From: Candidatus Dojkabacteria bacterium
GTDB taxonomy: Bacteria; Patescibacteriota; Dojkabacteria; GCA-002793355
NCBI GenBank assembly: GCA_030583685.1
Contig: CP129470.1
Span: forward strand, 84,345 to 148,344
DNA length: 64,000 nucleotides
Direction: 5' to 3'
The stretch's first letter is position 1. Every line of letters starts with the position of its first letter. A model generated the notes under the pieces. It was not told the origin of the DNA. It ran no database searches and saw only the letters and a list, made by a program, of their open reading frames with translations. Shown here one piece after another: positions 1-45,810 of the stretch. The translations under genes were made by a program, and so were the position numbers.

Positions 1-1072
1 CTTCTCTTAGTAATTCGAGGTGCCTTATTGATAATCGTTCTCCTTTGAGTGCGAATGCCACTTTATCAAGCATTTTTCGCAGAAAATATATATTCATGCG
101 TTCCTCGAAATACTCAGGTATCTCACCTAATTCCGTTAGAAATCCGCGAATCATTGCATCCTTTTTTGGATATGCCGACTTCCACGTCGGAGCAATGCCA
201 AGTTCACTTACCGGATCAAACATGATTGCGTGCTCCCAATCAAAAATCGCAACAAGTTTATCCCCTTCATACCGCATATTTAAATCAGAAGGGTCATTAT
301 GAATCAAATGTGACGTCGCTGATAGGAGAATATGCGTAACTGTATCAGAGTAAAAATAGTTCTTAATTCGAGAAATTTCGTGTTCTGATAGGATCCCAAA
401 CAATGTGATGACCTCTAAATCGTGTTCAAGATAGGTAACAAGATGTTCATGTAAAGAGCTCTTGATTCCGTATAAATTTCCTTTTTCGTCCTTTTTTATG
501 CGCCCCCACCCTTGAGCTGGAACGCGAAAAAGCTTCGCAATGTATCGTCCTTGTTGCTCACATATGCTTTCATAATCCTCACGCGAGCCTTCCCAATCTG
601 CGCCAAGATCTCTCCCTGGTAAGACGTCCATAATCTGATAATCAAAGGGGTATACTTTTCGAGAGACATCCGCATAGTACACATTGACAACAGGAATCCC
701 AAGGCTTTTGAAGTGTGAGACAAAATACTTTTCAAATTCCATATATTCCTCAGGAAACTCCAAAAACATATTCGTTCTCAAGACAATGTGCTCACCATCT
801 TTCGTGTTTACGACAGTAATCACGTGTCCTGTTCCTGCACGAGTTAATACTTCGAAAGTTGCTACTTGTTTTTTAAAATTTCTTTCAATAATTGGTTGAA
901 CAACAGACTCGTCAAAAAGAGCATGTCGCTGCTGCAATTTCAAAATGAGCGATTTTGGCCTATGAACATTATAGTAATTTACTTCATCAGGATGGAATGA
1001 ATAACGAGCATCAAGTTCTCTGAGTTGCTTATCATACTGTCTATAATTCAGATTCTCTAAAGATACTTTCAT
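1..1072 (-). CDS. Phosphotransferase-family kinase (APH/choline-kinase-like), C-terminally truncated by the window edge
   Basis: Reverse-strand ORF starts at an ATG (complement of 1070-1072) preceded by an in-frame stop and stays open to position 1, so it is absent from the ORF track. My translation contains the Brenner catalytic loop 'LIHNDPSDLN' (HxDxxxxN) and 'IFDWEHA' (D-W-E metal-binding motif), both typical of aminoglycoside/choline kinase-like phosphotransferases. Confidence 0.6.
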   Translation of the reverse strand, partial: MKVSLENLNYRQYDKQLRELDARYSFHPDEVNYYNVHRPKSLILKLQQRHALFDESVVQPIIERNFKKQVATFEVLTRAGTGHVITVVNTKDGEHIVLRTNMFLEFPEEYMEFEKYFVSHFKSLGIPVVNVYYADVSRKVYPFDYQIMDVLPGRDLGADWEGSREDYESICEQQGRYIAKLFRVPAQGWGRIKKDEKGNLYGIKSSLHEHLVTYLEHDLEVITLFGILSEHEISRIKNYFYSDTVTHILLSATSHLIHNDPSDLNMRYEGDKLVAIFDWEHAIMFDPVSELGIAPTWKSAYPKKDAMIRGFLTELGEIPEYFEERMNIYFLRKMLDKVAFALKGERLSIRHLELLRE

Positions 1073-1124
1073 TCACTATTATAACTTATCTCGCCAAATC
1101 AGGAATTCAAGGTATAATTAACCA

Positions 1125-2174
1125 ATGTTCGATTCACTTTTTCAGTTATTCACATTTGACATAGGAATTGACCTTGGCACAGCAAATACCCGCGTTGGAA
1201 TTAAAGGCAAAGGTATTGTCCTGTTTGAACCCTCTGTCGTTGCAATTAATAAAAATACAAAGGAAGTCCTTGCTGTTGGAAAAGAAGCAAAGGAAATGCT
1301 CGGAAGAACACCCGCTTCTGTCATTGCAACCAGACCGTTAAAAGATGGCATCATCGTTGATTTTGATATTACCTTAGCAATGCTCAAGTACTTTATCACC
1401 AAAGTGCATCAGGAACACGCAACTTATTCAACGGTTCCAAGACCACGAGTAGTTATTGGAGCACCATCCTCCATCACTGAAGTTGAACGACAGGCAGTAA
1501 TCGATGCTGCCGAGGCTGCCGGTGCACGAGAAGCGTTCGTCATAGAAGAACCAATGGCTGCTGCAATCGGTGTTGGCATTCCCGTTAATGAACCTATAGG
1601 GAACCTGGTTGTTGACATTGGTGGAGGAACAACTGATATTGCGATCATCTCGCTTGGAGGAATAGTTGTTGATAGAACCATTCCCATTGCGGGAGACGAA
1701 ATGGATGAACAAATTGTTGACTTTCTTAAGGAACGATACGGAGTTCTCATTGGAAAACGAACTGCCGAGAAAATTAAAATGACCGTTGGTTCTGCCGTTC
1801 CGGTAAAAAAAGAAAAGTTTGTAGCGGTACAAGGACGTGATATTGTCAAAGGATTGCCGCGGTCAATTGATATTGGAAGTAATGATGTAATGGAGGCGGT
1901 AGCACCTTCCCTACAGGCGATGACAGAGGCCATAAAACAAGCAATTGAAGATGCCCCCCCTGAATTAGTCTCAGATGTCTACACGCAAGGAATGCTCCTC
2001 ACAGGTGGAGGAGGGAAACTCGAAGGCTTAGATAAATATTGGGAAAATGCCTTACAAATAAAAGTTAAACGTCCTGCCGACCCTTCCTATAGTGTTGTCT
2101 TAGGAACCCTTGAAGCACTCAACCATATTGATGTTCTCAGGCGACTTAAAGAGGCAGAAAAATCCCTGTTATAA
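1125..2174 (+). CDS. mreB: Rod shape-determining protein MreB (actin-like ATPase)
   Basis: 349 aa. N-terminal phosphate-1 motif 'IGIDLGTANT', 'DIGGGTTDIA', C-terminal 'GMLLTGGGG'. Directly followed by mreC. Confidence 0.9.
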   Translation: MFDSLFQLFTFDIGIDLGTANTRVGIKGKGIVLFEPSVVAINKNTKEVLAVGKEAKEMLGRTPASVIATRPLKDGIIVDFDITLAMLKYFITKVHQEHATYSTVPRPRVVIGAPSSITEVERQAVIDAAEAAGAREAFVIEEPMAAAIGVGIPVNEPIGNLVVDIGGGTTDIAIISLGGIVVDRTIPIAGDEMDEQIVDFLKERYGVLIGKRTAEKIKMTVGSAVPVKKEKFVAVQGRDIVKGLPRSIDIGSNDVMEAVAPSLQAMTEAIKQAIEDAPPELVSDVYTQGMLLTGGGGKLEGLDKYWENALQIKVKRPADPSYSVVLGTLEALNHIDVLRRLKEAEKSLL

Positions 2175-2975
2175 TTGTACATGTCTCCAACTGCTCAGCA
2201 AGACAAATTACTGCTTCCTTTCCTCACGTTAGCGACGTCACTCTTTCTCTTATTAGATCTGGTTGGAATGCTTCAATGGTTTAAGAATTTTCGTTCATAC
2301 CTCATGTTTCCTATACATACCTTATCATCGTCGATTGTTACCAATACCGGGCTACTGACGACATCTATCCTGCAGAACAATTCAATTAAAATGCAAAATT
2401 TACTTTTAAAGGAGCGAATTTTGGAACTAGAGTCAGAAAACTCAAAACTGCAGAAAGAGATTGCGGAATTTCCAAAATTCGCGGAATATCAAAAAACGCT
2501 TGGATTACATTCCTATCAACAAACCGTAACTGCGCAAATACTCGACATTCGAGTGAACACCATCGAGGGGACTTTGTTACTCAACAAAGGCAGCAATGAC
2601 GGTGCAAAAGTTGGAATGCCGGTTATATATAATAATTACTACGTCTGCTCACTCATTGAGGTCAGAAGTGCGGATTCTCTCTGTTTATCCTTCATTGTGC
2701 CAGGTCAGGAATTCATTGGCTATATTCCCAGCAAAAAAATTACCGGAATTGTGAAAATTGGGATTAATGGCATGGTATTAGGTGACTTGCTTGCAACAGA
2801 GAAGGTTTCCTTGAAAGACGCGGTAAGCATGAAAAAAGAAGATTTTCCTTATTTTTTCACCCTTGGAACTATTTCAGAAGTTCCTCCTGATGACGGGAGT
2901 GCAGAACGCAAAGCTGTTCTTGACTCTCCCTTACGGCTGTCCGAACTCTTATATGTGACTATTGTTGTCAAATGA
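2175..2975 (+). CDS. mreC: Rod shape-determining protein MreC
   Basis: 266 aa. N-terminal TM helix, coiled-coil 'LKERILELESENSKLQKEIAEF', then a beta-rich region 'LLLNKGSNDGAKVGMPVI'. Sits between mreB and mreD. Confidence 0.7.
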   Translation: MYMSPTAQQDKLLLPFLTLATSLFLLLDLVGMLQWFKNFRSYLMFPIHTLSSSIVTNTGLLTTSILQNNSIKMQNLLLKERILELESENSKLQKEIAEFPKFAEYQKTLGLHSYQQTVTAQILDIRVNTIEGTLLLNKGSNDGAKVGMPVIYNNYYVCSLIEVRSADSLCLSFIVPGQEFIGYIPSKKITGIVKIGINGMVLGDLLATEKVSLKDAVSMKKEDFPYFFTLGTISEVPPDDGSAERKAVLDSPLRLSELLYVTIVVK

Positions 2976-3436
2976 TACACACATCAGTAAAAACCTCAAC
3001 AATAACAACAATACTTGCTGTCGCGTTACTTCTTAACTCATTATTGATTCCTTCACTCAGTATATTTCTTCTGGTCCTTGGTCTTCTCCTCATTGTTTAC
3101 CAAGAGAAGCAGGTCACGGTTGTAAATACAGCTGTTATCGTTTCTGCAGTGTATTCCCTCCTTTTTGAATCCCCGATCGGATTACTTCCTTTCCTCACCG
3201 CGAGTTTGTTGTTCGGCTACTTATTAATGCAGCAACGGGCACTCGCTTTAGGAATCTCACTTTTTCTTCAAATAACCTTCTTCATCGTTCTCCATCTACT
3301 TCTTACCAGTACAATTTCATTCGTCCTGACAACGGGGCAATTTGTTTTCATGCCTGAAATACTTGCTACAGCATTTCGTACCTGTTTGGTACTGTTTGTC
3401 TTAACATTCCTGATTTCACTCAATAGAAAACTATGA
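2972..3436 (+). CDS. mreD: Rod shape-determining protein MreD (polytopic membrane protein)
   Basis: 154 aa, entirely hydrophobic helices. 4-nt overlaps with mreC (upstream) and PBP2 (downstream). Assignment rests on the conserved mreBCD-mrdA context. Confidence 0.5.
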   Translation: MIHTSVKTSTITTILAVALLLNSLLIPSLSIFLLVLGLLLIVYQEKQVTVVNTAVIVSAVYSLLFESPIGLLPFLTASLLFGYLLMQQRALALGISLFLQITFFIVLHLLLTSTISFVLTTGQFVFMPEILATAFRTCLVLFVLTFLISLNRKL

Positions 3437-5247
3437 ATCCTCGCAAAATCATTGAAATTACCCAGACAACAAGGCATGTCCCCGAATCAATCCCGGCCCA
3501 ATATATCGGAATTTCTTTAGTCTTTGTAGTATTTTTGCTCTCATTTGCCTACCTCTTTTATGCAGGATTTGATCTCAGTATTGTGCAAGGGAAATCATAT
3601 GCTGCATTAGCAAATTCTAATTCGGTTGGTAAAGAAGCTGTTTTTGGAGAAAGGGGAATGATTGTTGATCGAGAGGGAAAAGCTCTGGTACAGAATAAAA
3701 AATCGTACGATATTTTCATCGATCCTTTGCAAGCGGAGAAGCAGACAATAAAATCGTTATTCCCCCAGAAAGAAACAGAGATTGACAAAATTTTCGCAGA
3801 TACGCGAGGTCTTACCGTTATCCTGATTCATGATGCCCCAAAGGAACTCGTTGTATCTCTCAAAGAAAAGAATCTCCCGGGAATTCTCTTAAAACACAGT
3901 TACGTTCGTGATTATCTTAATCCCTTACCGTTCGCACATCTGCTTGGATACACTGGAGTAGCAAGTGAAGCAGACCTAAACAATAACTCTTCGTACCTCA
4001 GAAACCAAATTGTCGGGAAAGCAGGGCTCGAGTTCTCTTACGACTCAGAGCTACAAGGTGAACTTCGCTACGATACGTATGAAAAAGATGCATTTGGCAA
4101 CCAAGTTTCTGCAACATCCACTTCCGCGCCGGCTTCAGGACAGCAACTCACCCTCGCAATTAATAAAAAGATGCAAGAAAACTTGTATGCTTCAGTCAAA
4201 AAGGCCGTCGATTCCAACAAAGCAAAGGGAGGATCTGCCGTAATTCTTGATGTAACAAACGGAGATGTCATCGCTCTTGTGAGTTATCCTTCTTACGATA
4301 TCAACAAGTTTGTTGGTGGCATTTCCTATCGTGATTACGATAAACTCATTAAAGACCCTCAAACTCCACTTCTTAACAGACCAATAGCAGCACAAGAGCC
4401 TCCAGGTTCAACCTTTAAGACAATTGTTGGGGTAGCAGCACTTGAGACAGGCACGATAACCCCAGAAACAAAAATCCTTGCACCTGGAGTCATTCGACTG
4501 ACAGGAGGACTGCAATTCCAAGATTTTCGCAGACGATACAACGGAAATTTAAACATTAAAGAAGCACTTATGGTTTCAAGTAACATCTTCTTTTGTAGGT
4601 CAATTATTTCCATGGGTATTGAGAAGTTCCTCCCGTATGCTGAACGCTTCGGAATTGGCAAAACAACAGGTATCGATTTACCTGGAGAAATGAGAGGTCG
4701 TCTTCCTTCGCCTGAAAATAAAATTTGGCTCGCAAATAACGGGGCCACCTGGTTGGATCCCGTTTGGTATCCAGAAGGAGACTCGTGTAACTCAGCAATT
4801 GGTCAAGGAATTACCCTTGCAACGCCATTACAAATGGCTGTACTGACCGCTGCTATAGCAAATGGGGGAACTGTTTATAAACCTCGTGTTGTCCAAAAAA
4901 TTACTGATTCTTCAGGAAAAGTTAGAGAAAAAGCACCCGTTGTTGTTGCGCAGGATATTGCAAGCGATACGACATTAACACTTATTCGTGATGGCATGCG
5001 AATGAGTGTTGCAGAGGCGCGTGGTGTTGCAACTGCATTGCGATATGTTCCAATGAAAGTTGCGGCAAAAACAGGAACGGCAGAATTCGGAGTCAAAGAT
5101 AAGAACGGCTATTCAACCGCTCACGGGTGGGTGATTGGCTTTTATCCCTACGAAAAGCCGAAATATGCTTTCGTCATGATGGTTGAAGGCGCAGGAAGCA
5201 GCTCGGTCGTCACCTTTGCGATGAGAGATTTTTTGAATAAAAAGTAG
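3433..5247 (+). CDS. mrdA: Penicillin-binding protein 2 (peptidoglycan D,D-transpeptidase, elongasome)
   Basis: 604 aa with N-terminal TM anchor. Active-site 'GSTFK' (SxxK) and 'KTGTAEF' (KTG) motifs, plus a PBP dimerisation-like N-domain. Follows mreBCD. Confidence 0.85.
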   Translation: MNPRKIIEITQTTRHVPESIPAQYIGISLVFVVFLLSFAYLFYAGFDLSIVQGKSYAALANSNSVGKEAVFGERGMIVDREGKALVQNKKSYDIFIDPLQAEKQTIKSLFPQKETEIDKIFADTRGLTVILIHDAPKELVVSLKEKNLPGILLKHSYVRDYLNPLPFAHLLGYTGVASEADLNNNSSYLRNQIVGKAGLEFSYDSELQGELRYDTYEKDAFGNQVSATSTSAPASGQQLTLAINKKMQENLYASVKKAVDSNKAKGGSAVILDVTNGDVIALVSYPSYDINKFVGGISYRDYDKLIKDPQTPLLNRPIAAQEPPGSTFKTIVGVAALETGTITPETKILAPGVIRLTGGLQFQDFRRRYNGNLNIKEALMVSSNIFFCRSIISMGIEKFLPYAERFGIGKTTGIDLPGEMRGRLPSPENKIWLANNGATWLDPVWYPEGDSCNSAIGQGITLATPLQMAVLTAAIANGGTVYKPRVVQKITDSSGKVREKAPVVVAQDIASDTTLTLIRDGMRMSVAEARGVATALRYVPMKVAAKTGTAEFGVKDKNGYSTAHGWVIGFYPYEKPKYAFVMMVEGAGSSSVVTFAMRDFLNKK

Positions 5248-5279
5248 CCCTAAATACTCGACAACTGATATAATTCCTT

Positions 5280-5834
5280 GTGAGCGCAGACCTCAATACT
5301 ATTTTTGAGAACATAAGAACGCTGCAAAATGTTGATCCAGACCCAGGATTAGTATCCCCACTCCACGCAGAATTATTAAGATTTAGGATTCACACCGCAC
5401 ACCTTCTTCAAACTGAGATTACAACACCAGACGAACAAGTAAATGCCGCCGCACGTGTCGGTAATCTTATTTCCGTTGGACATATTGCACACATCATGAT
5501 CGGGTCACGATACAAACATTTTTCTCAACACATTGAATCATTACAATTCTACAGTGACAACCTGTACTTCTTTCGAGAAATCGCAAAAACCGAAGGGTTA
5601 TTCTACAATCCCCGAGGGACGAGGGGAAAGACGTTAGACCGATTCCTTTCTGATCTCGAACAGATTGTATTGAGAGAATTTTCTCGTATAGTTCCTCGCC
5701 AAGATGATGAGTCACCCGAAAGATATGTCGAACGAGTCTCCATAACACTCACCCGACAAGAACTCGATTACATAGTATCATCCCCCGACAACATAAATCA
5801 CTCTCTAAACCTACTTCCCCCTATTGCGAAATAA
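5280..5834 (+). CDS. Hypothetical protein
   Basis: 184-aa ORF between mrdA and rpmF with no motif I recognise. It occupies the position where a DUF177/YceD gene often precedes rpmF, but has no Cys residues. Confidence 0.4.
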   Translation: MSADLNTIFENIRTLQNVDPDPGLVSPLHAELLRFRIHTAHLLQTEITTPDEQVNAAARVGNLISVGHIAHIMIGSRYKHFSQHIESLQFYSDNLYFFREIAKTEGLFYNPRGTRGKTLDRFLSDLEQIVLREFSRIVPRQDDESPERYVERVSITLTRQELDYIVSSPDNINHSLNLLPPIAK

Positions 5835-5858
5835 CTCACAATATAGTATCATTCACTT

Positions 5859-6014
5859 ATGCCAGCAGTACCAAAGAAAAGAGCGTCTCATGCACGAACA
5901 GCACGACGTAACAAAGCAAACAGTAGAGTAGAACTTACCGGTGTGACCGTCTGTCAAAAGTGCGGTCATCTCAAGCGAAACCACGCAAAGTGCATTCACT
6001 GTAACGCAAAATAA
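5859..6014 (+). CDS. rpmF: 50S ribosomal protein L32
   Basis: 51-aa ORF missed by the track: '[51 protein letters not shown]'. Typical L32 N-terminus and CxxC...CxxC zinc ribbon. Confidence 0.8.
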
Positions 6015-6019
6015 CCATC

Positions 6020-6448
6020 ATGGATTTATACAATTCAGGTGATAAAAGACGAAACGCAAGAATTCTCATCATTCAATCTTTTTACGCAGAATCACAAAAG
6101 CAAAATTCTAATGTTGTATCGCTAGTAACAAAAAAATACCCACTTGATAAGGAAAAATTTGAGGCAATTAAGTCCGCAATTACTACTCATGCTGATAAAA
6201 TCAACGAGTACATTCTCAAATATGCGAAAGAACGCCCAATTGACGAGATTAATCCAGTTGACTATACCATCCTTCGCATCGTGATTGCAGAAAGTATTGT
6301 AACGAACTTAACTCCACCAAAAGTTGCTATCAATGAAGGTATTGAATTGGCAAAATTATTTGGCACAGAAGCAAGTGCAAAATTTGTTAATGGCGTGTTA
6401 GGCGCAATTTATGATGAATACAAAGCAGAACACCAGCAAAACGAGTAA
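6020..6448 (+). CDS. nusB: Transcription antitermination factor NusB
   Basis: 142 aa all-helical protein with NusB-like N-terminus '[13 protein letters not shown]'. Confidence 0.7.
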
Positions 6449-7160
6449 CTTGCAAGAGGTTGAAACACTCATTGGCTACACGTTTAAAAAGAAACAAACG
6501 TTAACTACCGCACTAACGCATCGGTCATACGCAAATGAACTGAAAAAGCAAGGTTTTCTGTACAATAATGAAAGACTCGAATTCCTTGGCGACGCAGTTC
6601 TTGAGCTCGTCGTTTCAGAGTATATGTTTGCAACATACCCTGATCTTCCCGAAGGAATCATGACACTCGTTCGTGCAGCAGTGGTCAGAACGTCTTCGCT
6701 TGCAGAAATTATGGGAACGTTACATATGGGTAAGTACCTCATTATGGGTCACGGAGAAGAAAAAACGGGTGGCAGAACCAAAGAATACTTACTTGCAAAC
6801 TTATATGAATCCCTCGTTGGTGCCATTTATCTCGATGGGAAAATGAAACACGCAAAAGCATTTATTGAAAAAACACTTTTTGCAAAGATTGACGAAGCAG
6901 TGAAGCAAAAGAACTATGTCGATTCAAAGACAAGATTGCAGGAATTAACGCAACAGCTCTACAAAATTACGCCAACTTATACTATAATTCAGGAAAGCGG
7001 TCCAGCTCATGAACGTACCTATGTCGCCGCAGTGCTACTGGGTGACAAAAAGCTTTCAGAAGGAACAGGGCTCTCTAAGCAAAAAGCAGAAGAAGCCGCA
7101 GCCTCGAAAGCACTTGAGCTTTTAGATAACTTAACAACCGAATCGCATGCTCAAGGTTAG
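6411..7160 (+). CDS. rnc: Ribonuclease III
   Basis: RNase III signature '[20 protein letters not shown]' and a C-terminal dsRBD ('[17 protein letters not shown]'). Overlaps the nusB end by about 38 nt. Confidence 0.9.
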
Positions 7161-7440
7161 ACTTGCTCGAACCGGAAAAAGAGGACAGCCATCGTACCGC
7201 ATTGTCGTCATGGAGGCGAGAACATCCAGACAGGGACGCGTCGCCGATACACTCGGATGGTACAACCCAAACGCAGCCACTGAGAAACTCTCCATTGATA
7301 TGGCAAAGTACGAAGATTGGGTCAAGAAAGGTGCACAACCAACTGACTCAGTGCTCAAACTCGTTCTTCCGAAAGAGGAAAAAGAAAAGCGATGGCCAAC
7401 AATCGCCAAGAAAGAAACAGCTCCTGCACAGGAAGCGTAA
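7147..7440 (+). CDS. rpsP: 30S ribosomal protein S16
   Basis: '[41 protein letters not shown]' is a canonical S16 N-terminus. Confidence 0.9.
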   Translation: MLKVRLARTGKRGQPSYRIVVMEARTSRQGRVADTLGWYNPNAATEKLSIDMAKYEDWVKKGAQPTDSVLKLVLPKEEKEKRWPTIAKKETAPAQEA

Positions 7441-7479
7441 GTTGGTATATAATCTTCAGATAACTTAATACAAGAAACA

Positions 7480-7845
7480 ATGAAAGACTTAGTAACATAC
7501 ATTGTTCAAGCAATTGTCGAGAAACCAGAGGAAGTCTCCATTGAAGAGACAGTACTCGCAGACGGAAAAATTATTTTAACCATTCATACCGCACCAACAG
7601 ATGTTGGGTTAGTTATTGGTAAGATGGGAAAAACGATTAATGCAATCCGCTCGTTGGTCAAAATTAAAGCAATCAAAGAAGGAAAGTTTGTTGATGTCAA
7701 AGTCCCTTCAGACCGTGATAATGGACCAACGACCTCAGCACCACAAGCTGACAACACATCAGCTGCACCTGCACCAGCGCCAACCGCAGACCCTGTTGCC
7801 GATTCAGCAGCAGTAACCGGCGAGTTTGACGTACCAAACTTCTAA
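7480..7845 (+). CDS. KH-domain RNA-binding protein (KhpA/YlqC-like) with a low-complexity Pro/Ala/Thr tail
   Basis: KH GXXG loop 'VIGKMGKTINAIRSL'. Placement after rpsP is conserved. C-terminal 'PTTSAPQADNTSAAPAPAPTADPVADSAAV'. Confidence 0.7.
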   Translation: MKDLVTYIVQAIVEKPEEVSIEETVLADGKIILTIHTAPTDVGLVIGKMGKTINAIRSLVKIKAIKEGKFVDVKVPSDRDNGPTTSAPQADNTSAAPAPAPTADPVADSAAVTGEFDVPNF

Positions 7846-7907
7846 TCAGAAGAAGTACCTTAGTTACCGGAGCAAGAAGCAATTCTTTTTCGGTAACTAA
7901 GAACCTT

Positions 7908-7980
7908 GCACTCGTAGCTCAACGGATAGAGCATCAGTTTGCGGAACTGAGGGTTGCAGGTTCGATTCCTGCCGAGTGCA
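7908..7980 (+). tRNA. tRNA-Arg (anticodon GCG)
   Basis: Manual cloverleaf: acceptor GCACTCG/CGAGTGC, D-stem GCTC/GAGC, anticodon stem TCAGT/ACTGA with loop TTGCGGA (GCG), T-stem GCAGG/CCTGC with TTCGATT loop, discriminator A. No encoded CCA. Confidence 0.8.
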
Positions 7981-8480
7981 TATGTGTTTGTGACCTCAAT
8001 GGAGGTTACAAATATATATGTAGTCAAGAAATCGATTGAACCTCCTTAGTGTAGAATATCAACGAGTGAAATTCGATTGCGCCAGCAATATGAACTCCTG
8101 TAATCGGAAAGATGAGGTGATTATTCCTGCCGAGTGCATATGTGCGTGACGGCTCACAGCGTCGTTAAGCAGATATGTAGCCAAAGGAACGAATCAAACT
8201 TCCATATAATGTCTAAAGTTTTGTTTGATTCGCTTGCGAAGCAATACGAAGCCCTTAATTTCATGATGTATCGAAGTATTCCTGCCGAGTGCATATGTGT
8301 TTGTAGTCTCAGAGGGATTACAGACACATATGTATCCAAAGAAGTGAATCAAAACAATAATAGTTTGATTAATTCATTAGTTTTGATTCGCTTACGAAGT
8401 AATACAAAGCCCTTTTAATATTCAACGTACCCGAAGTATTCCTGCCGAGTTGAGTGCCCTACTAACTCGATTTATTCCGA
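7960..8480. repeat. Tandem array of about 3.5 degenerate ~160-bp units, each starting with a copy of the tRNA-Arg 3' end
   Basis: 'TTCCTGCCGAGTGCATATGTG' occurs at about 7962 (real tRNA 3' end), 8126 and 8279, and as 'TTCCTGCCGAGTTGAGTGCCC' at 8443. Units share further blocks ('GATTCGCTTGCGAAGCAATACGAAGCCCTT' at ~8225 and ~8385). Short inverted repeats start each unit ('CATATGTGTTTGT...ACAAATATATATG'; 'GGAGGTT...AACCTCC'). No credible ORF. Confidence 0.6.
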
Positions 8481-8482
8481 AA

Positions 8483-8872
8483 TTAGTTGAATTTTACTGA
8501 AAAATTGTACATCCCCATACTACACATTCCCTGAAGTGTCCCAACGTCAGGACTTCCAAGATCAATAAGTTCCTCTCCCGTTTGTGGCAATACTTTTTGG
8601 TAACCAATTTCCCTAATGACTAATGCGAGTGAACAATCGTATGTTCCATTTGTTTTAACAACTAATTTCGTAGGAATATTGGCATCTGCAGTTGTAATTC
8701 GAGGAGTATATCCCCCCCGAGCATTTATTGTAATGTACTGAACACCATCTTTCATCGTGACATTTTGATCTGACTGAGTACCTGTTGATTCACGTGAATT
8801 TTTTAATACTCCCCACAAGACAATTCCTGCGACTAATAGTAGTGTAATAATTATTGATGCAGTTTTATTCAT
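8483..8872 (-). CDS. Small membrane-anchored or secreted hypothetical protein, last gene of the copper locus
   Basis: Track ORF 8483..8950, trimmed to the internal Met 'MNKTASIIITLLLVAGIVLWGV' (signal anchor) so that it does not overlap the upstream gene. Three Cys (DCS..., GMCSMGM). No family recognised. Confidence 0.45.
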   Translation of the reverse strand: MNKTASIIITLLLVAGIVLWGVLKNSRESTGTQSDQNVTMKDGVQYITINARGGYTPRITTADANIPTKLVVKTNGTYDCSLALVIREIGYQKVLPQTGEELIDLGSPDVGTLQGMCSMGMYNFSVKFN

Positions 8873-8882
8873 GTGTTTTCGA

Positions 8883-9890
8883 TTATATGTTAAGTAGAGG
8901 GGGAATAATTCCAAGGCTCGCCAGTCCAGAAAGAAGGGCAAAAAGTCCAAATCCGATGACTATTATTCCTGTAGATTTAAAAAATAGTGGTGCGTATTTG
9001 CTTGTAGCAAACGTTGCAGATCCAAACGAAAGTAATGCAAGAACAGGCAGTGTGCCTAGCGCAAATGAAAGCAGTATCAACGCACCAGAAAGAAAGTTTC
9101 CACTACCTAAAGCAGAAACCTGCATTGATTGTGTAAATCCACACGGGAGAAAGAACGTTGCAAAACCCAAGAGCAGCGGTGCAAAATTTTTATGCTCCAC
9201 ACGTCGTAGAGTAGTAAAAATCCCAGAAGGAAGGGTGATTTTATTTTTCTCAAACAATCCAACCAAATTCAGACCGAGAAGTAACATTATTACCGCAGCA
9301 ACGAGTCCCAATATCGTTGTAATGGTAAAGTTAATACCTATAACGTTCCCAAGTGCACCGAGTGCACCTCCAAGTACTGCGAAACTGAGTATTCTTCCTG
9401 CATGGAACAATACAAAGGTTTTCGTGTCACTGCGCGAATCCTGAGAAATCTTTGCAGACAACGATAAGACGAGCCCACCAACGACAGCTAGACAACTTGA
9501 GACAGAAGCAACGAGCCCCACGATAAAACTGGTTACTGGTGTTATGGTCCCACCAATTCCAAAATTGAGAATTCCCGATGATTGGAGGAGGTAAAACAGT
9601 ACAAGAACTCCAACTCCGATGGGAAGGGCTTTCCATAGTTCATCCTTGTTATATGTCACCTCCGCTTGTTTTGTGAGTGACAGAGCATATCCATGTGATT
9701 GAATGGTGCGAGTTAATCTTGTAACCACATCTTCCGGAAAGTGACTTCCTTCAGTTTTAATATGGACAAGTTTTCTTTCCAAATCAACATGTACCTCACT
9801 AATATATTCCTCCTTATTGAGTGTTTCTTCGATATAAATCTGACACGAAGCACAGTGTGTGCCAGATACATGTAGAGTCATATTTTTCAT
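8883..9890 (-). CDS. Heavy-metal-associated (HMA) domain fused to a polytopic membrane permease (DsbD/CcdA- or TauE-like fold), putative copper-handling protein
   Basis: N-terminal HMA fold with metal-binding 'GTHCASC'. Then about 8 predicted TM helices with intramembrane Cys ('SSCLAVVGG', 'FFLPCGF'). Immediately downstream of copA. Confidence 0.55.
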   Translation of the reverse strand: MKNMTLHVSGTHCASCQIYIEETLNKEEYISEVHVDLERKLVHIKTEGSHFPEDVVTRLTRTIQSHGYALSLTKQAEVTYNKDELWKALPIGVGVLVLFYLLQSSGILNFGIGGTITPVTSFIVGLVASVSSCLAVVGGLVLSLSAKISQDSRSDTKTFVLFHAGRILSFAVLGGALGALGNVIGINFTITTILGLVAAVIMLLLGLNLVGLFEKNKITLPSGIFTTLRRVEHKNFAPLLLGFATFFLPCGFTQSMQVSALGSGNFLSGALILLSFALGTLPVLALLSFGSATFATSKYAPLFFKSTGIIVIGFGLFALLSGLASLGIIPPLLNI

Positions 9891-9892
9891 CG

Positions 9893-12187
9893 TTAAAGCT
9901 TCTTTGATTTAATTCGTAACGAGTTTGCAACGACAGATACCGAGGACATTGCCATGGCAAATCCAGCAAAGACTGGGTTGAGTACCCACCCAAAAATTGG
10001 ATAGAATACGCCAGCAGCAAGTGGAATTCCCATCGTGTTATAAATAAATGCCCAAAACAAGTTCTGTTTAATGCCTCTCATTGTTATTTTCGAGAGTCTA
10101 ATCGCTTTTACTAGTTTTGAAATATCACCACGAAGGAGCGTAATACCTGCAGATTCAATCGCAACATCAGTCCCCGTTCCCATCGCAATTCCCACATCGG
10201 CTTGTGCAAGTGCAGGTGCATCGTTCACCCCATCTCCGGCCATCGCAACAATTTTACCTGCCTGTTGCAATGACTGAATCTCATTGAGTTTATCCTGTGG
10301 CAAGACATTGGCAACAACTTTCGAAATCCCAACAAGAGAAGCAATATGTTTTGCTGCTTTTTCTTCATCACCTGTCAACATGACAATATCAATTCCAAGC
10401 CTACCAAGGTCCGCAACCGCCTTCTCAGACTCTTCTTTTATTTCATCAGCAACCATTACAAAGCCGAGCACTTCTTCTTTCGTGGTAAGAAGTACCGGTG
10501 TCTTACCTTGTTGGGTAAATGACTCTATCTGTTTGAAGTCAAAAACGAGTTCTAACTCACTCACGATCCTCGCATTACCCACAAAATATTCGACTCCATT
10601 GACAGTACCTTGCACTCCTTTCCCCTGCAAACTTTTGAACTTTGTGACAGTAAATAATTTCAATCGTTTACTTTTTGCATAATCAACAATTGCACGTGCT
10701 ATTGGATGTTCCGACTTTGTTTCTAGTGATGCGATAATTGCAATAAACTCGTCCTTACTCATATGTGAAAAGTTTTGTACATCCGTCAACGTTGGTTTTC
10801 CTTTTGTAATTGTTCCGGTTTTATCAACAACAACAGTGTCAACTCTATGTAGCATTTCTAACGACGCAGCGTCCTTAATCAAAATTCCCTCTTTTGCACC
10901 TTTTCCAACACCTACAATAATTGAGGTTGGAGTCGCAAGTCCAAGAGCACACGGGCACGCGATAACAAGAATTCCAACAAACGAAACGAGACCAAAGGAA
11001 AGGGCCTGAGAAAAACCAAGATATTGCGACCCGACAGCAAGCCAAACTCCGAGTGTCAACACAGCAATTACAAGTACGACAGGAACAAAGACTGCAGAGA
11101 TTTTGTCTGCAAGGGCTTGAATCGGTGCTTTACTGCCTTGAGCATCCTCGACCATAGTGATAATCTGGGCAAGCACTGTTTCAGATCCTACTCTCGTTGC
11201 TTTAAATACAAATGAACCAGTGGTATTAATTGTGCCAGAAGTTACCGAATCGCCGCCAGATTTTTGTACGGGCATTGGCTCACCGGTAACCATAGACTCA
11301 TCGACAAAAGACTCCCCCTCTGTGATAATTCCATCCACAGGTATTTTTGAACCCGGTTTAACAATGATAAATTCACCAAGTTTTACTTCACTGACTGAGA
11401 GTTCAATTTCTTTCCCCTCTCTCAAAACAAGCGCGGTTTTCGCCTGTAAATTGAGTAGTTTCTCAATTGCATCACCAGTCTTTAATTTAGAACGAGTTTC
11501 AAGATATTTTCCAAGAGCAACAAACGTTATAACAACAATGGTCACATCGTAGTATTGATAGTCTACATTAATGAAGGAAGCCAGGACTTCCTCAAAAGCC
11601 CCTATGGTAAAGCTGTACATATATGCAGCGACAGTTCCAAGACCGATAAGAGTATCCATGTTTGCTTTTCCGTAACGTATAAATCTAATTAATCCAAGCA
11701 AATAGGGCTTCCCAACAACAAAAAGGATGTACGTCGCAATTACGGGAAGTAAATGATGCATAAATTGCGACAAAACAGTGTTCATCATAGGGACAAGCAT
11801 AAATTCGGCCATCATTTCCCACCCCATGAAAATAATTGCTATTGCGGCAAGGGGGAGAGCAGTCAGAACATTTTTTCTCATACTCTCTAACTCTAATAAT
11901 TTTTCTTGCTTCGACTGCGCTAATCCAAGATGATGTGCATGTTCGTCTTCTGTCATCCCCATTTCCTCTGCAGTACCTTTTGCATCTAATGAGTAGCCAA
12001 GGGCCTCTATGTGCGATGACATCATAGAAGGATTTGTTTTAGAAGGATCATATGAAACCTTTGTTTTCTCTGTACCGTAATTAACTTCTGCTGATTCAAC
12101 TCCGCTAACCTGATTGAGTGTTTTCTCGATAATTGATGCGCAAGAGGCACAGTGCATTCCCTTTACCTTCAACGTTTGCGTCTGCAT
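9893..12187 (-). CDS. copA: Copper-translocating P1B-type ATPase
   Basis: 764 aa. N-terminal HMA '[15 protein letters not shown]', transmembrane 'CPC' motif ('[12 protein letters not shown]'), phosphorylation site 'DKTGTIT', '[10 protein letters not shown]' hinge. Confidence 0.9.
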
Positions 12188-12188
12188 A

Positions 12189-12500
12189 TTACTTCCTTTT
12201 TAATTTATAAACTTTAATGATTTCTGCCTTAGCTTTTTCTGTTTGCCCCGACTTCACTTGTTCAAACACACAATGTCCGAGATGGTTCTCTAGAAGTACG
12301 TCCTCTACATTTGATAAACCTTGTTTCACTGCAGACGTTTGGGTAATGATGTCAATACAGTAGGTATCTGCCTCCACCATCCGCTGAAGTCCGCGAATTT
12401 GCCCCTCAATGAGTTTCAAACGCCTGATGATGTTTGCTTTATTGTTAGTATTCATATATTTCATACTAACGATAATACCCCCCAGGAGGTATTGTGTCAA
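12189..12500 (-). CDS. csoR: CsoR/RcnR-family metal-sensing transcriptional repressor
   Basis: About 100-aa four-helix-bundle repressor: '[31 protein letters not shown]...[10 protein letters not shown]' with C...H...C ligand pattern. One nt upstream of copA. The true start may be an internal Met. Confidence 0.7.
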
Positions 12501-12578
12501 GAGACGTTTAAGAAACTACCTACAATAGGCGCCACACACTGAGCAATCTGACAAGGGAAGCAACGACTTAGGTATAAA

Positions 12579-13166
12579 CTACTCCAATTCCGCTTCAAAA
12601 ACTCCCAGAACTTTATATACTCTCACAAAATAGTCAGGATGAGGTGGTATTTCCCGAATTCCTCCGTATTTATTTTTCATAAACTCTTGCACATTTTGTG
12701 CACCTCCTGTAATCAGAACATCCGATAGAAATTGAGAAGCGTCGAGAAATTCCCCAGAGAGATTCGAGTAATACGCAGACAACTTCAAGACAATAACCGG
12801 TTCATTCCCCGCAAGCTTGGGTTCAATTATACCCATGTCCGATACTTTTCCTGACAAGGAAATACGGACAGCGACGGCAACATCGCCAACTGCAAACTCA
12901 ATTTCTTTTTCAGCATTGTCGGTATAAGGTGCGTTGATAATGCCAACTCTCGTTCCAATTGGAATTTGTAGCAATTGTTGATATTCTTTATCACGAAGAC
13001 GTATCAGGTGAATACCCTCGGAAAAGGAAAATAAGTCATTGACAATCACTTGTAGTTTTGCGCGAATTTCTTCATTTGTCATCGTCACAAACATTGTACA
13101 CAAGAGCGAAAACAAATTCAAAACAATACTCGATGGAAAATTTCTAGTATACTGCTGTATGCGCAT
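12579..13166 (-). CDS. Hypothetical protein
   Basis: 195-aa ORF with no recognised motif. The likely start is an internal Met ('MTNEEIRAKL'), which would remove the overlap with the divergent methyltransferase gene. Confidence 0.35.
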   Translation of the reverse strand: MRIQQYTRNFPSSIVLNLFSLLCTMFVTMTNEEIRAKLQVIVNDLFSFSEGIHLIRLRDKEYQQLLQIPIGTRVGIINAPYTDNAEKEIEFAVGDVAVAVRISLSGKVSDMGIIEPKLAGNEPVIVLKLSAYYSNLSGEFLDASQFLSDVLITGGAQNVQEFMKNKYGGIREIPPHPDYFVRVYKVLGVFEAELE

Positions 13167-14034
13167 TCCCCAATTATCTGTATCTCAGAACTTTCTCAAA
13201 GAAGACGTTGTTGACAAAGTTCTTGGGAAATTTGTCAAATTAGAAAACCATACCCTACCAATAGTTGATATCGGTGCTGGCACAGGAAACATCACTTCTT
13301 GGCTATCAAAAAATTCAAAAACGACAGTGTATGCATTTGAACTTGATCAAGCGCTCATTCCCGCATTGCAAAAGCGACTGCAAAACGCAGGTAAAGTACG
13401 AATTATCGCCAAAGACTTTCTTCACTTTCCCTCGATCGGAGAACAGTATTGTGTTGTCGCCAACATACCATTTGCAAGTACGACATTGATACTTGAAAAG
13501 CTGACCACCGACAGTTACTTCAAAGAGGGATACCTCATTGTGCAAAAAGAAGCAGCTGAACGCTGGCTTGGAGAACAAGTAGGCGCAAAGTCTACGGTTA
13601 GAGCAGCATTACTGGGTAGTATTTTTGAAGCTTCCTGCCTTCATTCGTTTTCTGCAGCCGATTTTACTCCAAAACCAAATGTTGCAATCGTTCTCATATC
13701 ACTGAAAAGAAGAGAATCGCCGCTCATTACTGGAAACATTCGGGATTTTGAAAACTTTATTGCCTATCTTTTCAATAAATCACTTCCAGAAATTCGTAGA
13801 GCACCAATTCTTGGCAGATTTCTTGCTCGGAGAATTGACCTCGGAAGAATTTCCTTATTGAGAAATGCACCCTCTGAGTTGTCTATTGAAGATTTTCTGT
13901 ACTTGTACTCCCTTTGTGATTCTGAAATCCTCGAAAAAATTTCAGGAAGTCACGAAAAAATGGTAGAGCAGGGGAGAGGAGTACAAAAAAGTTTCCGCAC
14001 GCGTCGTGCAAGTAATTGGCGAAACATGGTATAG
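13159..14034 (+). CDS. rRNA adenine N6-methyltransferase family protein (KsgA/Dim1/Erm-like)
   Basis: Track ORF trimmed to 'MRIPQLSVSQNFL'. 'SQNFL' motif I, SAM-binding 'VDIGAGTGNIT', 'VVANIPFASTT' (NIPY-type motif IV), 'LIVQKEAAERWL'. About 290 aa with an extended C-terminus. I cannot tell KsgA from Erm by sequence alone. Confidence 0.65.
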   Translation: MRIPQLSVSQNFLKEDVVDKVLGKFVKLENHTLPIVDIGAGTGNITSWLSKNSKTTVYAFELDQALIPALQKRLQNAGKVRIIAKDFLHFPSIGEQYCVVANIPFASTTLILEKLTTDSYFKEGYLIVQKEAAERWLGEQVGAKSTVRAALLGSIFEASCLHSFSAADFTPKPNVAIVLISLKRRESPLITGNIRDFENFIAYLFNKSLPEIRRAPILGRFLARRIDLGRISLLRNAPSELSIEDFLYLYSLCDSEILEKISGSHEKMVEQGRGVQKSFRTRRASNWRNMV

Positions 14035-14040
14035 TTCTCC

Positions 14041-14691
14041 ATGGGTATCGATCTCATGACAATCATTTTTACCATTCCAGCGATGTTGATTTCGGCCGCA
14101 GTACATGAGTATGCACATGCGTATACTGCGTATAAACTGGGGGATGACACGGCAAAAGCTGAAGGTCGTATGACCCTTAATCCAATCTCACACTTCGATT
14201 TGGTTGGGTTTTTGAGTATGATTTTTTTACGCATTGGGTGGGCAAAACCTGTTCCTGTTAACAGCTACAATTTTGCAAATCCTGTTTCTGGTAATGCGAT
14301 TGTTTCGATAGCAGGACCACTAGCGAATCTTGGTCTCATTATTGTGTCGGGCATCGTCCTCAAAGTCATTTTACTGCTCCCACTTACGGGACTTTTTTTT
14401 CAATTGATGGTCACTTTCCTGACGGTTATGTTGTTTATAAATACCAGTTTAATGCTCTTTAATCTCTTGCCCGTCCCCCCATTGGATGGCAGTAACATTG
14501 TTGAGGCCTTTTTGCCACGTCATTGGCGAGCGGGGTGGTCGAATCTCGCGCAGTATTCTCCTTTTTTACTTATCCTTTTGGTACTACCGATTTCCCCTGC
14601 ATTCGAAATATTCCGCTCGTTTTGGTATAATCTGCTGTCGACAGTACTGTCAGGGGTCGCGCTCATTTTTGACCTACCCTTGTTTCTGTGA
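14041..14691 (+). CDS. Site-2-protease-like membrane metalloprotease (M50 family, minimal form)
   Basis: HExxH in a TM helix ('AAVHEYAHAYTAY'). Second ligand motif 'NLLPVPPLDGSNIV' (LDG). About 6 TM helices. No PDZ or CBS domain. Confidence 0.6.
   Translation: MGIDLMTIIFTIPAMLISAAVHEYAHAYTAYKLGDDTAKAEGRMTLNPISHFDLVGFLSMIFLRIGWAKPVPVNSYNFANPVSGNAIVSIAGPLANLGLIIVSGIVLKVILLLPLTGLFFQLMVTFLTVMLFINTSLMLFNLLPVPPLDGSNIVEAFLPRHWRAGWSNLAQYSPFLLILLVLPISPAFEIFRSFWYNLLSTVLSGVALIFDLPLFL
14623..14637 (+). promoter_or_regulatory. Putative extended -10 promoter (TGgTATAATCTGCTG) for tRNA-Thr(TGT), inside the 3' end of the M50 gene
   Basis: TGnTATAAT at 14623-14631, about 65 nt upstream of the tRNA 5' end. 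The same 12-mer 'TATAATCTGCTG' recurs upstream of the second tRNA-Thr at 15272. Confidence 0.35.
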
Positions 14692-14695
14692 CAAT

Positions 14696-14767
14696 GCCGG
14701 AGTAACTCAGTGGTAGAGTGGCAGTTTTGTAAACTGTATGTCGCGGGTTCGAATCCCGCCTTCGGCT
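14696..14767 (+). tRNA. tRNA-Thr (anticodon TGT)
   Basis: Acceptor GCCGGAG/CTTCGGC (one G-U), anticodon stem GCAGT/ACTGT with loop TTTGTAA, T-arm GCGGG-TTCGAAT-CCCGC, discriminator T. Followed by a T-run (TTTTTCTTC). Confidence 0.75.
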
Positions 14768-14795
14768 TTTTTCTTCTCTTGACCACTGCTCAATA

Positions 14796-15309: not shown

Positions 15310-15383
15310 GCTGGAATAGCTCAGGTGGCTAGAGCACTCCCTTGGTAAGGGAGAGGTCACGGGTTCGAGTCCCGTTTCCAGCT
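15310..15383 (+). tRNA. tRNA-Thr (anticodon GGT)
   Basis: Acceptor GCTGGAA/TTCCAGC, D-arm GCTC-AGGTGGCT-AGAGC, anticodon stem CTCCC/GGGAG with loop TTGGTAA, T-arm ACGGG-TTCGAGT-CCCGT, discriminator T. Confidence 0.8.
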
Positions 15384-15569
15384 AATGGGATAGTGTTCGC
15401 CTGTAAGGTGAGCAGTATCCCATTTTGTTTACAGTCGGGACGAGAAGCCCCAAGGAGAATGTACCGACGTACATTCGACGACGTGGGAGGGCCCGAGTGC
15501 GAAACACCTCGATACGCGTAGCGCAATTAAACTGGTTTCGTGAGTGGGCGAGTCCCGTTTCCAGCTAAT
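15384..15569. repeat. GC-richer structured ~165-bp segment ending in a 19-nt direct copy of the tRNA-Thr(GGT) 3' end (GAGTCCCGTTTCCAGCT)
   Basis: The copy sits at about 15551-15569. The insert holds hairpins 'ATGGGATA...TATCCCAT' and 'GAATGTAC-CGAC-GTACATTC'. No credible ORF. Architecture is attL/attR-like. Confidence 0.4.
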
Positions 15570-27125: not shown

Positions 27126-27199
27126 GCGGACGTAGTTCAGTTGGCTAGAACATTTCCTTGCCAAGGAAGAGGTCGCGGGTTCGAATCCCGTCGTCCGCT
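27126..27199 (+). tRNA. tRNA-Gly (anticodon GCC)
   Basis: Acceptor GCGGACG/CGTCCGC, D-arm GTTC-AGTTGGCT-AGAAC, anticodon stem TTTCC/GGAAG with loop TTGCCAA, T-arm GCGGG-TTCGAAT-CCCGT, discriminator T. Confidence 0.85.
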
Positions 27200-27452
27200 T
27201 TTAGCTTTTGCTCTTCTTGAGCAAAAGGTGAAAGTTGGCACGGATGAGTAAGTAAACAGCATTTGTAAATAAATATGTGCACTTCGGTTGCAAAGCAACT
27301 AGCGTAGCGTCAATCCCGTCGTCCGCTTGTATACATCGTTTACGATGAACCCCATATCATAAAGATATCTCACTTTCATTCTGTTCAAGTTCACCTATTA
27401 AAGGTAAAATGAATAGTATGCGAAAGATAAAATTACTCCTTAGCATTGATTT

Positions 27453-45733: not shown

Positions 45734-45810
45734 GGGAACATAGCTCAGCTGGTTAGAGCATTCCGTTCACATCGGAAAGGTCACAAGTTCGAATCTTGTT
45801 GTTCCCACCA
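45734..45810 (+). tRNA. tRNA-Val (anticodon CAC), CCA encoded
   Basis: Acceptor GGGAACA/TGTTCCC, D-arm GCTC-AGCTGGTT-AGAGC, anticodon stem TTCCG/CGGAA with loop TTCACAT, T-arm ACAAG-TTCGAAT-CTTGT, discriminator A, then CCA. Confidence 0.8.

Follow-up and report, generated by a model that had tools for sequence, protein, structure and literature searches.

How a tRNA gene comes to be followed by repeated copies of its own 3′ end, each heading a further stretch of DNA of nearly constant length, is the question raised by the tRNA-Arg locus of a Candidatus Dojkabacteria bacterium (contig CP129470.1). We analysed this locus within a window of 64,000 nucleotides (nt), whose own coordinates are used throughout. 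A preliminary description had noted behind the gene a tandem array of units of ~160 base pairs (bp) that open with copies of the tRNA 3′ end and share further conserved blocks. It had proposed either stacked attachment (att) site cores, left by serial integration and excision, or a tandem family of structured RNAs starting at the tRNA. The array is borne out by ARAGORN, Rfam and exact 22-mers. Furthermore, units of the same kind stand behind other tRNA genes of this and of other genomes, always with the end of the local tRNA, and their interior appears to be maintained as RNA structure. The feature is best filed as a putative tRNA-targeted insertion element carrying a new structured RNA.

ARAGORN places tRNA-Arg(GCG) at 7907-7981, and the Rfam tRNA model matches 7908-7980 with 71.3 bits, confirming the gene; neither search found an additional tRNA in the array. 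The 22-mer ATTCCTGCCGAGTGCATATGTG, composed of the last 16 nt of tRNA-Arg and TATGTG, occurs exactly at 7965, 8123 and 8278, against 0 occurrences expected (100 shuffles). A fourth, partial core copy of 13 nt at 8438-8450 (ATTCCTGCCGAGT, then TGAGTGCC) is without TATGTG; the proposed recurrence of the tRNA end plus TATGTG thus holds at 8123 and 8278 but not at the distal copy. The core positions first given (8126, 8279 and 8443) were correct to within 2-4 nt, the repeats lying at 8123, 8278 and 8438. The core copies delimit three units with start-to-start distances of 158, 155 and 160 bp (Table 1), which are 65-75% alike overall and contain conserved blocks. Tandem Repeats Finder reported nothing at the array, because the units are too diverged. 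In most Arg arrays the most distal core copy is decayed or truncated (also in L012, L036, L037, L034 and L293; L numbers denote the related loci and assemblies compared). The 94-amino-acid open reading frame (ORF; 8134-8418) inside the array was rightly regarded as spurious: it has no Pfam match, spans two repeat units and would be disrupted in L003.

Table 1. Coordinates of the tRNA-linked units and adjoining features in the window
Feature	Position	Strand	Evidence or remarks
Hairpin between KH-gene stop and 5′ end of tRNA-Arg	7859..7901	+	11-bp perfect arms
tRNA-Arg(GCG), CCA not encoded; last 16 nt (7965-7980) = core copy 1	7908..7980	+	ARAGORN, Rfam
P1 hairpin of unit 1, 20 bp, beginning with GCA of the tRNA 3′ end	7978..8021	+	covariation, G·U pairs
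Unit 1 body: P1, P2 ~8031-8079, P3 8077-8088 (TTGC/GCAA), tail	7981..8122	+	
Core copy 2, ATTCCTGCCGAGTGCA, = tRNA 3′ end from T-loop position 58	8123..8138	+	exact repeat
Unit 2 body: P1 8136-8178, P2 8190-8199 with 8223-8232, P3 8234-8244; missing from strain L003	8139..8277	+	
Core copy 3	8278..8293	+	exact
Unit 3 body: P1 8291-8333, P2 8342-8355 with 8380-8393, P3 8392-8402 (TTAC/GTAA, compensatory variant)	8294..8437	+	
Core copy 4, most distal from the tRNA, decayed: ATTCCTGCCGAGT then TGA; no P1 after it	8438..8453	+	
Family-B module after tRNA-Thr(GGT) 15310-15383	15384..15569	+	P1 15384-15424, T-run, conserved core ..AGGAGAA-hairpin-TTCGACGA.., tRNA-Thr-end copy 15549-15569
Module after tRNA-Gly(GCC) 27126-27199	27197..27328	+	P1 27197-27235, family-A-like P3 box TTCGGTTGCAAAGCAAC, tRNA-Gly-end copy 27312-27328

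Units of this kind recur at other tRNAs. We took 24 tRNA loci from ten Dojkabacteria genomes and sought a copy of each tRNA's own end 75-300 nt downstream; 12 of the 24 have one, and the copy is always that of the local tRNA. The copies start in the T-loop at position 56-58 (tRNA offset 57-59 for Arg, Thr(GGT) and Gly in the window), their identity ends 0-6 nt beyond the tRNA, and a typical copy measures 16-22 nt, the exceptions being a 55-nt repeat in L013 and distal copies cut to 9-14 nt. Behind tRNA-Thr(GGT) of the window, the last 18 nt of the tRNA and three more recur 165 nt downstream, which gives a module of ~186 nt with conserved relatives behind various tRNAs in L036, L034, L015 and L291; behind tRNA-Gly(GCC), the last 16 nt recur 112 nt downstream, and the module (~129 nt) has a shorter tail. 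In L015 the acceptor stem of tRNA-Arg differs, and both of its copies match that differing sequence. Across species the units are of uniform size, forming discrete modules of 110-190 nt with conserved architecture. Empty sites also exist: in L013 tRNA-Arg lies directly before rsmA, in L290 the Arg, Thr(TGT) and Thr(GGT) genes are all without units, and a T-run directly follows unit-less tRNAs. Profile searches of the 64-kb window found no unit copy away from a tRNA, and a pattern scan of metagenomes gave matches only in the species of L011. Outside Dojkabacteria, an end copy was found at 0 of 10 usable tRNAs, which are too few to give a base rate. The copies are not remnants of whole-tRNA duplicates or pseudo-tRNAs, a possibility that we rejected on two grounds: no extra tRNA is detected by ARAGORN or Rfam, and the 70 nt before each copy align to the tRNA body with local alignment scores equal to those of shuffles.

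The interior of the units carries three predicted helices. What the preliminary description saw as a short inverted repeat opening each unit does pair, but is actually a 20-bp hairpin that takes in the last three bases of the tRNA. This helix, P1, is a hairpin of 17-21 bp that abuts the tRNA end directly after each full copy. In 13 Arg-type P1 hairpins, 92.6% of cells are paired, compared with 34-46% when the partner is slid, and changes on both sides of the helix are found at 16 of 20 pairs, a number reached by 0 of 500 shuffles. Twenty P1 hairpins together comprise 364 stem positions, of which 302 are Watson-Crick, 44 G·T and 18 other mismatches, with 0 A·C. Since A·C is the opposite-strand form of G·T, this bias argues that selection acts on the fold of the tRNA-sense strand, as it would in an RNA. 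The plus strand also folds better than the minus strand in 10 of 12 units. P2, a stem of 7-13 bp closing a loop of 16-24 nt, is found in the same place with differing sequences in 7 of 9 units, and P3 is a short stem, UUGC/GCAA, followed by AUACG, with the compensatory variants UUAC/GUAA (unit 3) and UUGGC/GCCAA (L036). P1 thus shows the compensatory changes and strand-specific G·U bias expected of a structured RNA; the same signs speak less strongly for P2 and P3.

The terminal copy of the tRNA end behaves differently. Its pairing with the unit body is no better than that of shuffles (z not below -1.2) and no tRNA-like minihelix forms, which leads us to reject a minihelix or closing-stem role and leaves the copy with no obvious role in the RNA. 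A T-arm-like partner just upstream of the copies is weakly enriched (3.11 versus 2.58, p = 0.0025), mostly in family B (see below), and is not used as evidence here. No promoter-like site was found inside the Arg array, and read-through from the tRNA is assumed for that reason. The Arg array contains no terminator-like site either; in Thr-type units, TTTTGTTT or TTTTTA comes after P1. The Thr unit also contains a 20-codon ORF that lacks conservation, the version in L036 consisting of ATG directly followed by TAG.

The units fall into two sequence families, A and B, neither of which is in Rfam; searches of three unit regions against Rfam 15 at permissive E-values returned tRNAs only, all other matches being far under threshold. 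Family A comprises the three Arg units of the window and the Arg units of L001, L011, L012, L036, L037 and L292, and the Gly unit is placed in it by its P3 box. Family B, marked by the conserved AGGAGAA-hairpin core listed in Table 1, comprises the Thr(GGT) units of the window and of L036, the Arg units of L034 and L291 and the Thr(TGT) units of L034 and L015, with weak matches in the Thr(TGT) unit of L013 and the second Arg unit of L015. In both families a hairpin with AUACG after it stands at an equivalent place, which suggests that they form one superfamily. In L034, two family-B copies behind different tRNAs have a lineage-specific insertion in common, and in L036 the P1 hairpins behind the two Thr tRNAs are nearly identical. 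Within one genome, units have therefore spread from one tRNA locus to another or exchanged sequence with units there. Our literature search found no description of such modules.

The array is also variable in copy number and content among strains. Strains ~98% identical to the window differ in it: L003 lacks unit 2, a loss compatible with a core-to-core event, and six assemblies have another allele at the start of unit 1, whose first 86 nt, comprising P1 and part of P2, differ at 57% of positions. In L293, which belongs to another lineage, 106 bp are missing; the endpoints fall in AGTT(T)CCATTA segments that are homologous between two adjacent units, and a chimeric unit is left. As these endpoints lie inside the units, the event was unequal homologous recombination and not a core-to-core exchange, and at least this one change in the array thus came about by homologous recombination between units. 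Divergence around unit 1 is mosaic: over window positions 1-14767, comparison with L001 and L003 gives 0-1% in most segments and 7-8.5% in the most divergent genes, orf184 (5280-5834) and copA (9893-12187). This mosaic suggests frequent imports by recombination. Short-read contigs often end in tRNA/unit loci, namely at the P1 of unit 1 or within tRNA-Gly or tRNA-Thr(GGT) (the end of L005, the start of L278 and the ends of L001-L003), which fits population heterogeneity or repeats.

What, then, are the units? Established here are the repeats, the helices with their covariation and strand bias, the occurrence at several tRNAs and in several species, each time with the matching end, the empty sites, the variation among strains and the lack of a nearby recombinase in the genes checked; from these we infer mobility, entry point, enzyme, transcription and a role for the RNA. 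Our preferred reading, to which we give a probability of about 0.45, is that the units are miniature, discrete, non-autonomous insertion modules specialised on tRNA genes, which would enter at the T-loop, rebuild the tRNA 3′ end and be transcribed with the tRNA, while their enzyme is encoded elsewhere. From 5′ to 3′, such a module would consist of the last 16-22 nt of the tRNA (beginning at T-loop position 56-58 and running a few bases beyond the discriminator), P1, P2, P3 and a tail of ~35 nt. On entering the gene at the T-loop, its own 3′-end copy would restore the tRNA, and P1 would become the new trailer structure for 3′ processing or termination, while the earlier 3′ end would be displaced downstream and decay there. 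Repeated entry at the rebuilt tRNA, together with unequal homologous recombination between units, could then make and reshape a tandem array. An enzyme encoded at another place in the genome would act in trans, the most conservative guess being a tyrosine integrase in the T-loop/3′-end class, and the module, read through from the tRNA promoter, would be present as a structured RNA.

Several points weigh against this reading. Pfam searches found no recombinase, transposase or reverse transcriptase domain in 20 ORFs of the window, in agreement with the integrase-free window reported initially, nor are these enzyme classes represented in the precomputed Pfam annotation of the called genes at about 20 related loci. 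Neither an autonomous relative of the units nor a larger parent element was found, and no excised form, circle junction or clean filled/empty pair was seen in close strains. A circle of 140-190 bp is very small for integrase chemistry. Furthermore, the only copy-number change that could be resolved, that of L293, is homologous recombination and requires no mobility. The presence of one family at several tRNAs with perfectly matching cores is awkward for a classical integrase, and gene conversion between loci could mimic spread within a genome. A wider version of the preferred reading, which we consider rather doubtful, would make the modules a gene-less, RNA-coding mobile class in candidate phyla radiation (CPR) bacteria that homes to the T-loop of any tRNA gene, takes the tRNA end from its target (by RNA guidance or a long target duplication, and not through a classical integrase with a fixed attP) and rides on tRNA transcription.

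The initial idea of stacked att sites was soundly based and is supported in part. At tRNA genes, integrase att cores usually leave a footprint of direct repeats that reach from the T-loop to the 3′ end of the tRNA (10.1101/2020.11.02.365908), serial integration displaces older elements outward and leaves partial tRNAs (10.1101/2020.12.28.424599), and accretion of cis-mobilizable elements (CIMEs) as well as att-flanked elements lacking an integrase are known (PMC5704250). The units resemble the islands and prophages integrated at tRNAs by P4-like tyrosine integrases, and the CIMEs, in their repeats of the tRNA 3′ part from the T-loop, in the rebuilding of the tRNA by the incoming copy and in stacking with older elements farther out. 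Full-size elements would, by this account, have integrated serially at tRNA-Arg and been deleted down to remnants next to attL and attR. The 16-22 bp repeats (55 bp in L013) look like att cores (10.1101/2020.11.02.365908), the interval from tRNA-Arg to rsmA is a cargo hotspot, and the distal copies are decayed as this model expects. We nevertheless hold it to be distinctly unlikely, because random deletion would not produce units alike in length and architecture across many species and several tRNAs, the interior of these discrete modules is under selection for RNA-type structure, the cargo islands have no terminal repeat, and no gene checked holds an integrase fragment. The units, at 110-190 bp, also differ from integrase islands in scale, the smallest integrase-bearing island in a Klebsiella survey being ~3.5 kb, as well as in their conserved structured RNA and in the occurrence of one family at several tRNAs with matching cores. 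Like integrative elements, the units are flanked by repeats taken from the 3′ portion of the target tRNA, and among the genes checked no recombinase lies within or adjacent; compared with CIMEs, the flanking cores are present, there are no genes inside, and no larger parent, whether an integrative and conjugative or an integrative and mobilizable element, was found.

The other idea raised at the outset is likewise supported in part, the structural evidence for it being strong; its developed form would be a structured small RNA retained by the host, derived from the tRNA 3′ trailer, released by 3′ processing and locally duplicated in tandem. P1 would then protect the RNA as a 5′ hairpin or serve as a site for RNase III, and the tRNA-end copy would be a by-product or a processing or recognition signal. 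Functional RNAs do arise from tRNA 3′ trailers, an example being the 3′ETS-leuZ sponge of E. coli, and tRNA-linked small RNAs are released by RNase Z/P; the units are like them in placing a structured RNA directly after a tRNA, presumably freed by 3′ processing. To our knowledge, the known trailer RNAs are single, have no flanking tRNA-end copies and are neither tandem nor found behind many tRNAs. In favour of a host RNA are the RNA-type covariation with its 44:0 ratio of G·T to A·C, the persistence of P2 and P3 across species whose KH proteins, encoded beside tRNA-Arg, are only 74-83% identical, the placement of all units directly 3′ of tRNAs in the same orientation, and the possibility of explaining the array changes by homologous recombination. 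However, tandem duplication cannot put one family behind different tRNAs with different matching ends, the terminal copy pairs neither with the unit body nor as a minihelix, no Rfam family matches, and the units are missing from L013 and L290 and highly variable elsewhere, unlike a core RNA gene. On balance we regard a host RNA of this kind as unlikely.

Improbable, in our estimate, is a further account by analogy, in which each unit would resemble a guide RNA, with a scaffold of ~120-140 nt (P1-P3) and a 3′ guide of 16-22 nt, identical to what follows the universal T-loop motif GGTTCG, which would serve as an adjacent motif of the TTC type. Insertion into tRNA genes, or homing to them, would be directed by an RNA-guided enzyme whose gene lies elsewhere, and the flank would define the guide. 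The omega-RNAs of TnpB and IscB and the guide RNAs of Cas12 have a scaffold of ~120-150 nt and a 3′ segment of 16-20 nt matching DNA beside a short fixed motif. The agreement in architecture and sizes, the left boundary fixed right after GGTTC(G) at every tRNA and the RNA-type structure would all suit such a module, which would also easily account for one family having the correct end at each tRNA. The likeness is nonetheless one of architecture: no TnpB, IscB, Cas12 or other partner was found at any locus examined, there are no IS200/IS605 ends, and the segment matches the module's own host tRNA. Moreover, the target of internal units would be the tRNA that they themselves had rebuilt, P1 differs freely in sequence from one unit to the next, and the identity extends over anything between 13 and 55 nt. 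A local duplication by chance, or an artefact of assembly, for which nothing speaks beyond the use of metagenome assemblies, deserves next to no weight and is refuted: the array recurs in independent assemblies of several sequencing runs and is therefore no artefact, and homologous units are present in many species and at other tRNAs.

The units were compared with other known systems as well. The tycheposons of Prochlorococcus share with the units tRNA-anchored variable islands, a streamlined genome, outward displacement and scattered partial tRNAs (10.1101/2020.12.28.424599), but carry recombinases and kilobases of cargo, whereas here the module is a gene-less ~150 bp and the cargo islands at tRNA-Arg have neither a terminal repeat nor an integrase. 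Arrays of clustered regularly interspaced short palindromic repeats (CRISPR) and casposon or Cas1-type insertion at tRNA 3′ ends recall the units in having a leader-like side (here the tRNA), fixed repeats, a degenerate last repeat and a duplicated target. A CRISPR array is ruled out, since the intervening "spacers" are 135-145 nt long and mutually homologous, the repeat is 13-55 nt and no cas genes are among the called genes. A miniature inverted-repeat transposable element is ruled out as well, there being no inverted repeat joining the unit ends and a duplication of 13-55 nt, and integron attC sites, ToxI-type repeats and tandem interspaced guide RNA (TIGR) arrays were set aside on architecture.

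Although few mobile elements are recognised in CPR bacteria, whose genomes are tiny, about half of the sampled tRNA genes carry modules. If mobile, these would be the smallest tRNA-targeting insertion elements described and a simple model of cost-free residence in an essential gene, by way of a rebuilt tRNA end and a trailer hairpin; they may also mark exchange sites of cargo islands such as the copper-resistance operon described below. If they are host RNAs, they would make up an RNA superfamily that has escaped annotation and is linked to the processing of tRNAs, in a phylum whose non-coding RNAs are almost unknown. Either way, partial-tRNA repeats break metagenome assemblies and can mislead island finders that use tRNA fragments as borders.

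The gene order at the locus is rpsP, the KH gene, tRNA-Arg, a variable stretch and rsmA, and the KH identities given above are to Dojkabacteria and Patescibacteria counterparts; a protein identical to the KH protein of the window is assigned by NCBI to Dojkabacteria (WS6). Between tRNA-Arg and rsmA lies a hotspot of variable islands. In the window this interval is filled by a copper-resistance cluster on the minus strand (8483-13166), encoding a cupredoxin-like protein, a DsbD_2/HMA protein, the CopA ATPase, a CsoR-like protein and a 195-amino-acid ORF; in relatives it is empty or holds SDR, HD, MFS or small ORFs. At another tRNA, L001, L004, L006 and L007 carry ~1.5 kb directly after tRNA-Thr(TGT) (a 53-amino-acid ORF and a 374-amino-acid glycosyltransferase; L001 17288-18777), which is missing at window positions 14767-14795; this insert has a T-arm-like fragment, GGGATTCGAGTCTC, near its start.

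Among viral contigs, the 16-mer core gave 9 matches, approximately the chance number. Three related viral contigs (L022 883-898, L026 and L027) have 22 nt, AATTCCTGCCGAGTGCATTTCG, in common with the tRNA-Arg end, with no integrase gene nearby; the match may reflect an attP that a phage uses in a different host, or may be fortuitous. Two loose unit motifs returned unrelated DNA among the matches listed from viral contigs, the tight family-B motif matched there solely in a phage coding gene, and BLASTN with the array gave no match in collections of phages and plasmids.

The 43-nt hairpin reported between the KH gene and tRNA-Arg is real (Table 1). All relatives compared (L011-L037 and L290-L292) have a hairpin here that differs in sequence and ends a few bases before tRNA-Arg, in some cases followed by a T-run; it is probably an ordinary operon terminator or processing hairpin lying outside the array. 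In the Dojkabacteria genomes compared, tRNAs seem to have a hairpin on either side. The anticodon of tRNA-Arg is GCG in every Dojkabacteria locus seen, and one of the five tRNAs in the window, tRNA-Val (45734-45810), encodes its CCA end.

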